Below are positions 23,288 through 26,483 of a stretch of 64,000 nt of DNA, one piece after another. Origin of the DNA: Escherichia coli (GTDB taxonomy: Bacteria > Pseudomonadota > Gammaproteobacteria > Enterobacterales > Enterobacteriaceae); the NCBI RefSeq assembly GCF_965641715.1, contig NZ_OZ282455.1. One strand, given 5' to 3'. The notes beneath the pieces are model-generated. The model did not search any database. It was not told the DNA's origin and saw only the letters and a list, made by a program, of their open reading frames with translations. Numbering within the stretch: the stretch's first letter is position 1; every line of letters starts with the position of its first letter. A program made the position numbers and the translations under genes.

Positions 23288-24496
23288 TCAGAATTCGTTG
23301 TCTGTAGCAGGTGTGCGGGGCAGGATGTCGTCGGTGAGGGACCAGTTGGTCAGGATGCGGCGTTTCCGGTCGCGATCTGGTTGTGGTTCATCCCAGATAA
23401 GACCGAGACTGAGCATATCCCGCCGTAAGCCTTCCACCGCTTCATCAACACAGGGTTCAGGGCAGGGAAGACCAAAACGCATGGCTTCGGCCTCTGCACG
23501 TGCAACGGCCACCACGCCAGCGCCTTCAATAAATCCTTTCGTGGTATTGGCGCGGTGTAATGCATAAAACAGCGTCCTGTCCACGCCTTTCAGCCAAATC
23601 CAGTTGGGTGGCGTAAGCCGCAGGTCATGTGCATACAGCCAGACCAGCCCACTGCGGACGTAGCGATGTTGTTTCAGCCATTGCTGTGCTCCGTTGCTTT
23701 TAATCACTCTCTGGAAAGCTGATTTGGCCAGTGAATAAACAGGGGTACAGAATTTCCCACTGTCCCGTTTGCTTTTAATTCTGCATGAGAGGTTCAGTGT
23801 ATCCATGAGCTTTAATGCTGCCTTACGATCATCCAGGAAATACTGAAGACCAAATATGGCAAAGAGCGCTTTTTCATGTGGTGCCATGTCTTTCCAGGAC
23901 GTTAAAGGTTTACCCAACTGGGCCATGAAACATCGTCTTGCAGCTGCAACATCGAGCTGCATATTGGTGATGAGAGTATGCTGCTCGACAAATGCTTCCG
24001 GGGTGAGAGCAACCCGCCGTTCAGGTCGTTTGCCACCATGAAAGAGTTTTTCCGGATCACCATCTGCCAGTACAGGGGCGATAGCAGGGGACAACGAAGC
24101 AAAGATGTGTGGCAGTCGGGTAATATCTACTGGTCTGCGGGTGAAACGGCTTTGTCCCGGATGTTGATACCATTCCCACAAACACCAGAGTGTCACAGGT
24201 AAGAGGTACATCCACAGAATACCTATGGTCTGCTCCATGACGTTAACCCACTGGCTATAGCTTATGTTGGCGGCGTTGTTACCGGTCATGGCAAGCAGGT
24301 TGTATCGTGGTGCTGCATAGTTATGAAATGGCCCCCAGTCGACCAGTCCCCATAAGGTATGAAGAATCAGGCAGCTGGCGTAAACCACTTCCGGCAAGAA
24401 TAACCATATGACGAATAGCAGCAGGATAAGAAGGACACCAACAGCGCCCCATATCTGCATAGGATCTTCTGCGACAGGCTGTCGATTGTAAGACAT
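23288..24496 (-). CDS. trbA: conjugal transfer membrane protein TrbA
   Basis: 402 aa; N-terminal hydrophobic segments; synteny. Confidence 0.75.
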   Translation of the reverse strand: MSYNRQPVAEDPMQIWGAVGVLLILLLFVIWLFLPEVVYASCLILHTLWGLVDWGPFHNYAAPRYNLLAMTGNNAANISYSQWVNVMEQTIGILWMYLLPVTLWCLWEWYQHPGQSRFTRRPVDITRLPHIFASLSPAIAPVLADGDPEKLFHGGKRPERRVALTPEAFVEQHTLITNMQLDVAAARRCFMAQLGKPLTSWKDMAPHEKALFAIFGLQYFLDDRKAALKLMDTLNLSCRIKSKRDSGKFCTPVYSLAKSAFQRVIKSNGAQQWLKQHRYVRSGLVWLYAHDLRLTPPNWIWLKGVDRTLFYALHRANTTKGFIEGAGVVAVARAEAEAMRFGLPCPEPCVDEAVEGLRRDMLSLGLIWDEPQPDRDRKRRILTNWSLTDDILPRTPATDNEF

Positions 24497-24648
24497 GACA
24501 AAGTCTCCATTTCTGGAATTTAAATCAAACGGAAAGGTTAAAAATTTATTTGCAGGCGATAAGAGCTAACCAGAGGAATTAGCCGTGCGATAAAAGGATT
24601 GTTGCAGATACGAAAGTCGTTAGAATAGCTGCGGGCGCTTGAGGCTGT

Positions 24649-24933
24649 ATGCCGAAAGCGTTTTGTGGACGGTATACAGCAGAAAGCCCCTGGAGATTTT
24701 TTTATCAATCAACCAAGGGCTCTACTGTAATGCCTAGACAACATTATAGTAGCCCGATAACCGCCGTAAGGCAATGGAGGGGCTATGATGCCACAGCGAA
24801 CGTTTTTAATGATGTTAATCGTCATCTGTGTGACGATTCTGTGTTTTGTCTGGATGGTGAGGGATTCGCTTTGCGTACTCCGGCTCCAGCAGGGAAACAC
24901 AGTGCTTGTGGCAACGTTAGCCTACGAAGTTAA
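24649..24933 (+). CDS. pndC: PndC-like (Mok-equivalent) overlapping reading frame
   Basis: Track ORF overlapping pndA in another frame, as in hok/mok loci; true start probably internal. Confidence 0.4.
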   Translation: MPKAFCGRYTAESPWRFFYQSTKGSTVMPRQHYSSPITAVRQWRGYDATANVFNDVNRHLCDDSVFCLDGEGFALRTPAPAGKHSACGNVSLRS

Positions 24934-24940
24934 ACGTTAA
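24788..24940 (+). CDS. pndA: PndA, Hok/Gef-family type I toxin
   Basis: 50-aa ORF found by hand (MPQRTFLMMLIVICVTILCFVWMVRDSLCVLRLQQGNTVLVATLAYEVKR); Hok-family hallmarks SLC…G…LAYE; GGAGGGG SD. Confidence 0.8.
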   Translation: MPQRTFLMMLIVICVTILCFVWMVRDSLCVLRLQQGNTVLVATLAYEVKR

Positions 24941-25011
24941 CGGGCAACACGGCGGCAGGTTTTCTGCCGCCGCTTTGTTGCGAAGGCTGACCTCATTGCG
25001 CCCTTTCTTCT

Positions 25012-25263
25012 TCAATGAAGCGTATCCGGTATTGTTTCATTTCCCCTGAAGCCGATTAGCTCCAGCCGAATGCCTTTGCCATCGGGGGCCACGTTCTGCA
25101 TTTCGCAGATACCACGTCGGGTCATGAGTGTGAAGGCTGTCATTGCCAGCATGGCTAACGCGTTTTCCTCGCTTCCGCTGCGTTTCTCGAGAGCATCGGC
25201 AATTTCTTCTATGCTCCCCACCTGAAAGCAAGAGTCGAATTCTTTACTCCACTTTTCTGACAT
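25012..25263 (-). CDS. hypothetical protein (83 aa)
   Basis: Track ORF; ATG with GAGAG SD. Confidence 0.45.
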   Translation of the reverse strand: MSEKWSKEFDSCFQVGSIEEIADALEKRSGSEENALAMLAMTAFTLMTRRGICEMQNVAPDGKGIRLELIGFRGNETIPDTLH

Positions 25264-25416
25264 CGGATTTTCTCTCTGTATTTATGGGTAGTTATCGAAC
25301 TGAATGTGCCAGTTTTTTCAGGAGACGGCAAAGTTGAGATGATTGGTTCTGATTCAGAGCATGAGTTTCCTCGGTGTGACGGGCATGTCGGGCGGATTTT
25401 GAGAAACAACAGATGT

Positions 25417-25503
25417 AAAAAAACCGACTGGTGAGGTCGGTTTTTTTACTGTTCCGTTACAGAGTGGGTGGCCCTGACCGGAGGAAATCTCTTTTCAACT
25501 AAC
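25417..25503 (-). ncRNA. candidate trans-acting antitoxin sRNA (about 87 nt)
   Basis: - strand promoter TTGCTA-17 nt-TATTAT (about 25510..25540); 5' 24 nt complementary to 25667..25690; terminator A7-CCGAC-loop-GTCGG-T7 at 25417..25447. Confidence 0.45.
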
Positions 25504-25761
25504 GTTCTTATAATAGCGAGCTGTTCATTTGATAGCAACCATCCTTATAATCCGCAGGTTAGCTCTGTCTGGCGACACTTCTGCCGTGATATCCATCGGG
25601 ACTATGGATGCAAGATTTTAAGTCCTGGCTGAACAAACAGGTGGTGCTGTGTTCAGTGCTCTGGCAGGAGGAAGTCTCTTTTCAACTAACACTGAAAGTG
25701 CCGTTGTGACAGGCAATGTAAGAGTAAGCAACGGTGATTTCCTCCAGTGATGGAGAAGCGG

Positions 25762-25857
25762 ATGATTAATCTGTTAATCATCGTTCTCAGGGCAGTAGTT
25801 GCCGTTGCAAACGCGCTGATTGCTGTTCTGGAACTGATCCGGGAACTTGTCGACTGA
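25762..25857 (+). CDS. candidate type I toxin, 31-aa hydrophobic peptide
   Basis: ORF found by hand: MINLLIIVLRAVVAVANALIAVLELIRELVD; GGAG 8 nt upstream; long 5' UTR holding the sRNA target site; hairpin after stop. Confidence 0.45.
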   Translation: MINLLIIVLRAVVAVANALIAVLELIRELVD

Positions 25858-25921
25858 TAAGCCTGGAAACGTAACTAAGGGCAGGGAGTTACCGCTTCCT
25901 GCCCTTTAACAAAAAGAGATC

Positions 25922-26098
25922 TCACGTTAAAAATTTGTACCCTTCTTTAACTTCCAGTGCCTGCTCCTTTGACTCAAACATCAGTCTTGTTTTCCCGGGA
26001 ACACCCCATGAAATGTATTCAACATCTATCCACCATTTTCCATATTCTTCATATGGCCCGGATATTACTTTTTTGACAAAGGCGTCTACCAGATTCAT
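25922..26098 (-). CDS. hypothetical small protein (58 aa)
   Basis: Inside track ORF 25922..26206; ATG at 26098 follows AAGGAAAA; AT-rich context. Confidence 0.35.
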   Translation of the reverse strand: MNLVDAFVKKVISGPYEEYGKWWIDVEYISWGVPGKTRLMFESKEQALEVKEGYKFLT

Positions 26099-26483
26099 TA
26101 TTTTTTCCTTTTTGTGTTGAAAATAATTAATGCCAGAGCACAGCGAAAATAATGAATGCGCTGGCTGTGATAATTGCGATTTTCTCCCATATGATATTTT
26201 TCTCATGGGGGATTCTACGGAGATTATTTCTTCGCATTGAGATACCGGTATTCATGTTTTATCTTGGACTTTTGTTTTGTTGTCTGTCTGGCAGGCTGTT
26301 CTGCGCCCGTTTGTGACAAGGTTAGCTTATGGGGTTAAATGGTCACGGACATCATGCGGACGGTTCCCTGTCACATGCCATCTGGTTTTTTCATTCAAAT
26401 TGAGAGATATTGCTAAGTTGAGTCGCTTGCGATAGTGGACTCCTGTTTGTAAGTGAGTGCCATTGTTTATTTCATGAAGAGGA

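Follow-up and report, generated by a model that had tools for sequence, protein, structure and literature searches.

Does the short reading frame at 24788..24940 of the window, the 64,000-nucleotide stretch of Escherichia coli DNA analysed here, encode a Hok-family toxin, and does it come with the leader and the antisense RNA of a complete toxin-antitoxin (TA) system of type I? The first-pass annotation had named the frame pndA, had expected a Sok-like antisense gene, PndB, on the minus strand upstream of it, and had suspected that a second type I toxin lay close by. Our analysis leaves little doubt that the segment 24598-25010 is an intact pndBCA module, a hok/sok-family type I TA (post-segregational killing) locus of the IncI-complex conjugative plasmids. 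No feature of the sequence speaks against this assignment.

The toxin gene and its plasmid setting

The toxin frame and its ribosome-binding site are as follows.

24776..24782, plus strand: pndA Shine-Dalgarno (SD) sequence GGAGGGG, read from the sequence, 5-7 nt upstream of ATG 24788
24788..24940, plus strand: pndA, 50-aa Hok/Gef-family membrane toxin MPQRTFLMMLIVICVTILCFVWMVRDSLCVLRLQQGNTVLVATLAYEVKR (Pfam, BLASTP, RefSeq CDS)

The 50-aa ORF on the plus strand is real, and its absence from the ORF track, already pointed out in the first-pass annotation, reflects the default cutoff of 60 aa. In the ORF listing the first ATG gives a frame of 51 aa (24785..24940, plus strand); the 50-aa form of PndA starts at the second ATG, at 24788, with a stop codon that ends at 24940. 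The RefSeq CDS on identical plasmids (L001 4189..4341, corresponding to 24788..24940 in the window) is the 50-aa form, and in the IncK/Z variants ATG 24788 is conserved and ATG 24785 is absent. The pndA SD aligns with the hok SD, GGAGAAG.

With Pfam PF01848 (HOK_GEF), PndA scored 45.1 bits (cutoff 22, E 7e-12), which shows that pndA is not a chance ORF. BLASTP against the Hok protein of R1 gave an E of 3e-12 at 30% identity, with the conserved SLC and AYE motifs aligned, and the product has the single transmembrane segment, the length of approximately 50 aa and the Hok/Gef signature expected of the pnd subgroup of the hok/sok family. PndA scored below the cutoffs of two NCBIfam models, the HokA equivalog NF007290 (67.3 bits versus 89) and the Hok subfamily NF007279 (42.5 bits versus 73). 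Judged by these model scores, PndA is not a HokA equivalog, and only the Pfam match places it in the Hok/Gef family. The exact protein is found on at least 999 public contigs, where it is named 'Hok/Gef family protein'.

Alignment to the pnd locus of R64 (NC_005014), which had been proposed as a check, revealed 3 base differences over 421 bp (24734, 24736 and 24876) and an intact ORF. The identification as PndA holds: the protein is one residue off R64 PndA, with V30 in place of G30 owing to base 24876, and the V30 allele is very common. The module sits between trbA and excA. The same neighbours, trbC-trbB-trbA upstream and excA-traY downstream, are present on pESBL-117 and R64, and the 421-bp locus is 100% identical in more than 800 sequenced plasmids, nearly all of them conjugative, from Escherichia, Salmonella and Shigella. 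Truncated or orphan remnants of the pnd leader also occur on related plasmids.

The leader, the mRNA folds and the antisense RNA

We compared the region upstream of pndA with the R1-type hok/sok reference loci L008, L009 and L004. Two further R1-type loci are incomplete: in L002 the sok target is disrupted by IS150, and L003 has no leader. The elements of the sense transcript are listed in order.

24599..24626, plus strand: putative promoter of the pnd mRNA, placed by position; -35 TTGTTG (24599-24604), 16-nt spacer, -10 TAGAAT (24621-24626)
24634..25010, plus strand: full-length pndC-pndA mRNA of about 375 nt with the 5' end GGCGCUUGAGG, from Rfam and alignment; the 3' end is inferred
24634..24643, plus strand: tac (translational activator) element, at the 5' end of the mRNA
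24684..24690, plus strand: ucb (upstream complementary box), the anti-SD of pndC, from folds
24715..24721, plus strand: pndC SD region AAGGGCU, 9-11 nt upstream of ATG 24730, aligned with the mok SD, GAGG
24723..24750, plus strand: PndB-recognition hairpin, whose stem holds the pndC AUG; predicted in both full-length and leader folds
24730..24933, plus strand: pndC, mok-like leader frame of 67 codons plus stop that overlaps pndA, from alignment to the hok locus
24751..24755, plus strand: dcb (downstream complementary box), AGCCC; its partner is GGGCU 24717-24721 when the leader is folded alone (truncated-type fold)
24950..24972, plus strand: GC-rich stem-loop that follows the pndA stop, a probable 'road-block', from a terminator-like scan and folds
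24992..25002, plus strand: fbi (fold-back inhibitory) element CCUCAUUGCGC, from MFE folds

Alignment to the hok mRNA of L008 places the mRNA +1 at 24634. The putative -10 ends 7 nt ahead of the conserved 5' end, the same spacing as that of TATGAT in L008, and homology with the IncK/Z variants and orphan copies begins at approximately 24598. Rfam RF01794 matched 24633..24790 (plus strand) over its full length (model positions 1-157) with 134.2 bits against a cutoff of 59. Although this model is named 'sok', we rejected the match as the antisense gene, since the model describes the sense mRNA leader and ends at the toxin AUG. At the other end, homology among the variants stops in a T-rich stretch after 25002, just past fbi, and we therefore set the 3' boundary of the mRNA near 25010.

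The start of the leader frame was fixed by the same alignment. In L008, the mok AUG (+116) is the aligned counterpart of ATG 24730 and the hok AUG (+174) that of ATG 24788; the hok mRNA numbering, with the mok AUG at +116, was checked against PMC9841398. Because ATG 24730 aligns with the mok AUG, we assign pndC to 24730..24933, and on this sequence comparison its true start is ATG 24730, giving 67 codons. This length is kept in 94 of the 116 related copies. At the sequence level, pndC is thus an overlapping leader frame that starts within the antisense target, as in the hok/sok family.

Folding of the full-length and the shortened transcript produced two alternative structures. In the MFE fold of 24634 to 25006-25014, tac pairs with fbi (24634-24638 with 24998-25002, and 24640-24643 with 24992-24995), and the ucb bases AGCCC 24685-24689 pair with GGGCU 24717-24721 in the pndC SD region. 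The fbi element is conserved as CCTCAATGCGCC in the IncK/Z variants. In the leader-only fold (-49.7 kcal/mol, z = -5.19), ucb pairs with tac instead, the SD pairs with dcb, and the loop 24733-24741 is exposed. The pndC SD is therefore predicted to pair alternately, with ucb in the full-length fold and with dcb in the leader-only fold, the latter pairing matching the 'mok SD/dcb stem' of hok (PMC9841398). The two folds correspond to the closed and open conformations described for hok in the same paper. The tac element itself takes three partners in the folds: fbi in the full-length MFE structure, ucb 24684-24690 in the isolated leader, and 24656-24661 in a short fold that, as modelled, resembles a metastable hairpin. 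Both the long-range tac/fbi pairing and the alternative tac/ucb and SD/dcb stems that characterize the hok/sok family are thus present in silico.

Comparison of 23 pnd and hok leaders supports the predicted structure. The Rfam consensus structure is 79.7% paired on these sequences, compared with 34-41% (approximately 37%) for slid controls, and 13 pairs changed on both sides, compared with 3.9 in shuffles (none of the 500 shuffles reached 13). Helix 1 is paired at 92% across the 23 sequences and helix 7 at 96%, with changes on both sides in 5 of the 9 pairs of helix 7. Since tac is invariant across the 23 leaders, covariation cannot be assessed for this element. These results indicate that the leader has the conserved RNA structure of a hok/sok-family locus. 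The 9-nt loop of the recognition hairpin, 24733-24741 (CCUAGACAA), carries a YUNR-type CUAG and is complementary to the predicted 5' tail of PndB. Downstream of the coding region, the stem-loop at 24950-24972 has 10 pairs, 8 of them G-C, is seen in every fold and aligns with the hok stem-loop, which halts 3' trimming (PMC1635323); by analogy, it probably sets the 3' end of the processed, translatable mRNA.

The antisense gene, whose ends the first-pass annotation could not place, was located on the opposite strand across the start of pndC.

24746..24774, minus strand: predicted pndB promoter; -35 TTGCCT (24774-24769), 17-nt spacer, -10 TACTAT (24751-24746), with an overlapping TATAAT (24748-24743)
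24679..24738, minus strand: PndB antisense RNA of about 55-62 nt, 5' end at 24738-24735, predicted ends

A Sok-like gene is present where the first-pass annotation had expected it, upstream of pndA on the minus strand: promoter, tail and terminator hairpin align base for base with R1-type sok. The predicted promoter aligns hexamer for hexamer with TTGCGC-17-TATCCT in L008, taken here as the sok promoter. Across the 23 leaders, the positions of both hexamers are conserved. The pndB promoter matches the consensus at 8 of 12 positions, and a strict sigma-70 consensus scan, which required at least 9 of 12, listed neither the pnd nor the pndB promoter; both were placed by alignment to the R1-type locus, and each has fewer than 9 of the 12 consensus positions. 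The perfect TATAAT at 24748-24743 was also considered as the -10 and is disfavoured. It has no -35 match 16-18 nt upstream, and TACTAT with TTGCCT is preferred for this reason. The predicted +1 of PndB is accordingly uncertain by about 3 nt, being 24738, or down to 24735 if TATAAT is the -10.

The predicted RNA begins with a single-stranded tail of 11 nt, UCUAGGCAUUA, which is followed by a stem-loop and, at 24685-24681, a UUUCU tract. Its fold has an energy of -25 kcal/mol (z = -4.85) and leaves the first 11 nt unpaired; none of 200 shuffles was as stable. It is complementary to ucb, to the pndC SD and to the pndC AUG. Sok-RNA is 64 nt long and has an 11-nt single-stranded 5' tail that contacts a loop in the mRNA after refolding (PMC1635323); in R1, the stretch that begins with ACUAGAC and ends with CUUCUUU has precisely this length of 64 nt. 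The Sok +1 used here rests on the R1 sequence, on the fit to 64 nt and an 11-nt tail (PMC1635323) and on sequence logic. The predicted PndB thus has the promoter, 5' tail and stem-loop terminator of a hok/sok-family antisense RNA. Neither of the two outcomes that would have undone the first-pass reading was found, for the toxin ORF is not degenerate and an antisense promoter is predicted in place.

Proposed action of the locus and other readings

The steps of the proposed mechanism are taken from work on hok/sok and pnd, and the window contributes the matching sequence elements only. A stable mRNA of approximately 375 nt would be made from 24634. In the full-length molecule, the 5' tac would pair with the 3' fbi and ucb would mask the pndC ribosome-binding site, and because of this pairing and masking the mRNA would be neither translated nor bound by the antisense RNA. 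Slow 3' trimming back to the hairpin at 24950-24972 would remove fbi, upon which tac would pair with ucb, the pndC SD would shift to dcb, and the 9-nt loop beside the pndC AUG would be exposed. In plasmid-carrying cells, the short-lived PndB (minus strand, from about 24738 to 24681) would dock on this loop through its 11-nt 5' tail, form a full duplex and block translation of pndC, to which translation of pndA would be coupled, and RNase III would cut the duplex. In plasmid-free cells PndB would decay first, the processed mRNA would be translated, and the 50-aa PndA would damage the inner membrane and kill the cell. Published experiments bear on several of these points. PndA of R483 is toxic on expression (bioRxiv 10.1101/2025.08.07.668861), and when pnd of IncI plasmids is inactivated or neutralised, post-segregational killing is reduced and curing becomes possible (PMC5330492, PMC7602700). 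Deletion of pnd alone did not destabilise pESBL (PMC7602700), which argues that the contribution of pnd is partly redundant.

We examined sequence variability over 372 nt in those metagenomic and plasmid copies that had no more than 15 differences from the window. In this set, positions 24734, 24736, 24737 and 24876 are where the changes concentrate, and several haplotypes differ from the window at just two of the three loop positions. Positions 24734, 24736 and 24737 all lie in the mRNA recognition loop and in the PndB tail. In PLSDB, 24733-24738 reads CCTAGA, the allele of the window, in 1250 records, CCTCAA in 656, and CTTCGA, the allele of R64 and ColIb-P9, in 579; CATGAA and CATCGA also occur, and there are at least five loop alleles altogether. 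At 24735 the U never varies, and every allele has a purine at 24737. Such bases would be needed for a U-turn (YUNR-type) loop, according to the motif of Franch et al. 1999 as cited in PMC1635323. The predicted 7-nt tail-loop duplexes range from -7.5 to -10 kcal/mol for cognate pairs and from -0.1 to -6.6 kcal/mol for non-cognate pairs, and on two contigs with tandem intact pnd copies the alleles differ between the copies.

Near-identical pnd loci that differ mainly at three loop/tail bases may, on these models, represent specificity classes. A stronger version of this idea, in which the loop bases form a specificity code so that an IncI-complex plasmid with another allele would fail to rescue the cell and plasmids would compete against each other, is speculative and in our judgement rather unlikely. 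If it were true, the orphan PndB-coding remnants on some plasmids could serve as 'anti-addiction' decoys. The rest of PndB, about 50 nt, is complementary to every allele, and the statement that 125 IncI1 plasmids have identical pndB (PMC5330492) is awkward for specificity classes.

The same observations bear on a broader proposal, that the main selected role of the locus is not vertical stabilisation and lies in competition between related plasmids, or in responses to stress or phage, with the toxin/antisense mechanism unchanged. The concentration of differences at the three contact positions, the much stronger cognate duplexes, the differing alleles of the tandem copies and the high frequency of all three main alleles in PLSDB would fit such a role; cross-neutralisation may still occur through the approximately 50 nt of PndB that are complementary to all alleles, and competition would in any case be another selective reading and not another mechanism. 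We regard this role as a doubtful candidate.

Decay is far less probable. The locus might look intact and yet be a non-functional hok-family remnant that neither kills nor stabilises, as are most chromosomal hok loci: chromosomal hokA, hokB and hokC are unable to mediate post-segregational killing (bioRxiv 10.1101/2025.08.07.668861), truncated and orphan leader remnants are known from related plasmids as noted above, the deletion of pnd only from pESBL gave no stability phenotype (PMC7602700), and the V30 substitution in PndA could be counted on the same side. However, all regulatory elements and both reading frames of the window copy are intact, its sequence is identical to that of hundreds of circulating conjugative plasmids, and near-identical IncI1 pnd loci act as active addiction systems (PMC5330492, PMC7602700), which makes a decayed locus very improbable and favours a functional pndBCA module.

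That the true product is the 94-aa ORF at 24649..24933, with the small pndA ORF incidental, deserves almost no credence: this ORF alone here passes the 60-aa cutoff and ATG 24649 is conserved among pnd variants, but that ATG lies inside the conserved tac-proximal hairpin and has no counterpart in hok leaders, which have CTTTCTGCC there, the counterpart of the mok start is ATG 24730, neither the 94-aa nor the 67-aa product gave a significant family match in Pfam or NCBIfam whereas the pndA frame has a clear Hok/Gef match, and in hok it is the act of translating mok that matters and not the Mok protein (PMC9841398). The first-pass annotation was right that the track holds an overlapping Mok-like frame, on the plus strand; its extent of 94 aa is a mechanical over-extension, and the extra 27 upstream codons fall within conserved RNA structure. 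The sole ORF displayed at pnd under the 60-aa cutoff is therefore an artefact of the upstream extension of the pndC frame.

A neighbouring dqlB/agrB module and comparison with known systems

The suspicion of a second type I toxin beside pnd, based on a candidate module at 25.4-25.9 kb, was borne out by matches to the AgrB and DqlB models. By these matches, 25415-25906 is dqlB/agrB, a second and independent DinQ-like type I system, and the two toxins lie approximately 820 bp apart.

25415..25502, minus strand: agrB-like antisense RNA, with an intrinsic terminator at 25449-25415 (Rfam RF02891, full length)
25510..25538, minus strand: promoter of the agrB-like antitoxin, TTGCTA, 17 nt, TATTAT (promoter scan, 9/12)
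25623..25642, plus strand: LexA-box-like sequence TCCTGGCTGAACAAACAGGT upstream of dqlB, a predicted site only
25658..25690, plus strand: target of agrB within the 5' UTR of dqlB; it repeats 25471-25503 directly over 33 nt at 88% identity
25762..25857, plus strand: dqlB, 31-aa DinQ-like type I toxin MINLLIIVLRAVVAVANALIAVLELIRELVD (NCBIfam NF041473)

The NCBIfam DqlB model NF041473 covered 31 of 31 residues and scored 67 bits (cutoff 35), and DqlB is 65% identical to DinQ over 17 aa. RefSeq has dqlB at matching coordinates on identical plasmids and on R64. The antitoxin RNA matched Rfam RF02891 (AgrB) with 55.3 bits against a cutoff of 40; its promoter -10 ends 7-8 nt before the start of this match, and in its fold the first 20 nt are unpaired. 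The predicted agrB:dqlB duplex has an energy of -54.5 kcal/mol. When the target was masked, the SD GGAG at 25752-25755 paired with CUCC at 25742-25745 in the fold, and such anti-SD/SD closing is in line with the model that Kristiansen et al. give for DinQ (PMC5066626). Read on the opposite strand, 25623-25642 is identical to a LexA site that was predicted for the dqlB gene of pTF2, an IncI1 plasmid, with a heterology index of 11.64; DqlB was not among the proteins detected in the proteome of that study (PMC12211044). The locus thus combines a DqlB peptide with a divergent agrB RNA complementary to the toxin 5' UTR, as in dinQ/agrB-like systems. An Rfam search with E up to 1 found no agrA at the locus and a single AgrB match. 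Published plasmid dqlB loci are likewise without agrA (PMC12317039), and we therefore do not regard agrA as defining for the plasmid dql subgroup.

The dql family was defined in 2016 (Kristiansen et al.), was shown in 2025 to act in plasmid addiction on both pOXA-48 and pOXA-484, and is reported on 67% of IncI1 plasmids (PMC12365149, PMC12317039). On pESBL, residual killing persisted without pnd and a second system was not found in the annotation (PMC7602700); by analogy, a dqlB/agrB module like that of the window would be a natural candidate for this activity.

Both pnd and dqlB/agrB are already annotated and published, so that the finding is correct but ordinary, and it leaves the known mechanism unchanged. 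Mild novelty lies only in the observation that, among pnd loci that are nearly identical, the differences fall mainly on three bases of the mRNA:PndB loop/tail contact. In practical terms, an ORF track with a cutoff of 60 aa shows neither of the addiction toxins (50 aa and 31 aa) and neither of the antisense RNA genes. The two modules help to maintain resistance plasmids of the IncI type in bacterial populations, and pnd is a demonstrated target for plasmid curing (PMC5330492).

Among known systems, the second module resembles dqlB/agrB in its 31-aa DqlB, its divergent agrB-like RNA, its 33-nt target in the 5' UTR and its anti-SD/SD arrangement. It differs in that the published tests concern IncL and IncX3 plasmids, whereas the window copy is IncI-type and known here from sequence. 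The chromosomal dinQ locus has a second sRNA, agrA, whereas the window module has one agr-type RNA only.

The first module shares with hok/sok (parB) of R1 the tac, ucb, dcb and fbi boxes, the overlapping mok-type frame and the road-block hairpin, as well as an antisense RNA made of an 11-nt tail and a stem-loop, encoded opposite the start of the leader frame, with aligned promoter hexamers. It departs from R1 in that Hok and PndA are only 30% identical, the pnd leader is about 19 nt shorter than the hok leader, no separate terminator hairpin is visible after fbi, and the tac/fbi register is GGCGC/GCGCC plus UGAGG/CCUCA in pnd, compared with GGCGCUU/AAGCGCC in hok. The closest relative is pndBCA of the IncI1 plasmids R483/R64, reportedly the subject of work by Nielsen and colleagues in 1991 and by Nielsen and Gerdes in 1995. 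R64 and ColIb-P9 differ from the window at the loop/tail contact, which reads CTTCGA there and CCTAGA here (24734 and 24736), and the genes, their order and the position between trbA and excA in R64 are as in the window.

Allelic variation in the pnd loop and predicted PndB tail

The main differences among near-identical pnd loci fall at window positions 24734, 24736 and 24737, and these three bases are contained both in the recognition loop of the pnd mRNA and in the predicted 5′ tail of the antisense RNA PndB.

24733-24741, plus strand: pnd mRNA recognition loop
24738-24728, minus strand: predicted PndB 5′ tail
24633-24790, plus strand: match to the Rfam "sok antitoxin" model, RF01794

RF01794 represents the leader of the toxin mRNA, in sense orientation and with the toxin AUG as its end point; its matches therefore lie on the strand of the toxin, and their coordinates are not those of the antisense RNA. 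Five loop alleles were seen (CCTAGA, CTTCGA, CCTCAA, CATGAA and CATCGA), CCTAGA being that of the window. All three main alleles are common, with 1250 PLSDB records for CCTAGA, 579 for CTTCGA and 656 for CCTCAA. Duplex predictions suggest that cognate tail-loop pairs would be much stronger than non-cognate ones.

Tandem copies and orphan leader remnants

Two comparison contigs each have a tandem pair of intact pnd loci, spaced by approximately 720 bp, and some IncI-like contigs show an orphan pnd-leader remnant about 970 bp downstream of the intact pnd.

L049, 2256-3133, plus strand: paired intact pnd loci
L064, 3927-4805, minus strand: paired intact pnd loci
L037, 3366-3507, minus strand: orphan remnant, Rfam sok
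L038, 2524-2665, minus strand: orphan remnant, Rfam sok
L019, L050, L052, L060, L070, L076, L095, L097: similar remnant sites

Every tandem copy encodes a 50-aa PndA variant, and in both contigs the loop alleles differ between the two copies. The Rfam sok match to the orphan remnant scored 67.5 bits. Its detailed make-up was read from a single copy, that of L037, which retains the PndB-coding part (tail allele CCTAGA, the stem-loop and the -10 TACTATAAT) and has no -35 box, inner hairpin or pndA. A second agrB copy follows this remnant; the L037 contig lacks the dqlB ORF region (window 25591-25910).

Neighbouring genes and an interrupted hok/sok locus

23288-24496, minus strand: TrbA, 402 aa
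25012-25263, minus strand: 83-aa ORF converging on the pnd 3′ end
25922-26206, minus strand: 94-aa ORF after dqlB

The Pfam DotM_C match of TrbA (E 1.6e-49) fits with IncI plasmids having a type IVB (Dot/Icm-like) transfer system. On identical plasmids the 83-aa and 94-aa ORFs bear the annotation "hypothetical protein", and neither had a match in Pfam or NCBIfam. Separately, in L002 (NZ_CP141206.1, 1-370), IS150 splits an R1-type hok/sok locus of an IncF plasmid within the Sok target region; the hok promoter and the 5′ half of the leader are lost, and hok and the sok promoter remain.

Comparison with R64 and ColIb-P9

The pnd loci of R64 and ColIb-P9 carry the loop allele CTTCGA, in contrast to CCTAGA in the window. 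PndA residue 30 is V in the window (GTA; variable base 24876, plus strand), whereas R64 has G30, as do most related copies. Despite this G30 majority the V30 allele is widespread, the exact window protein being found on at least 999 contigs.
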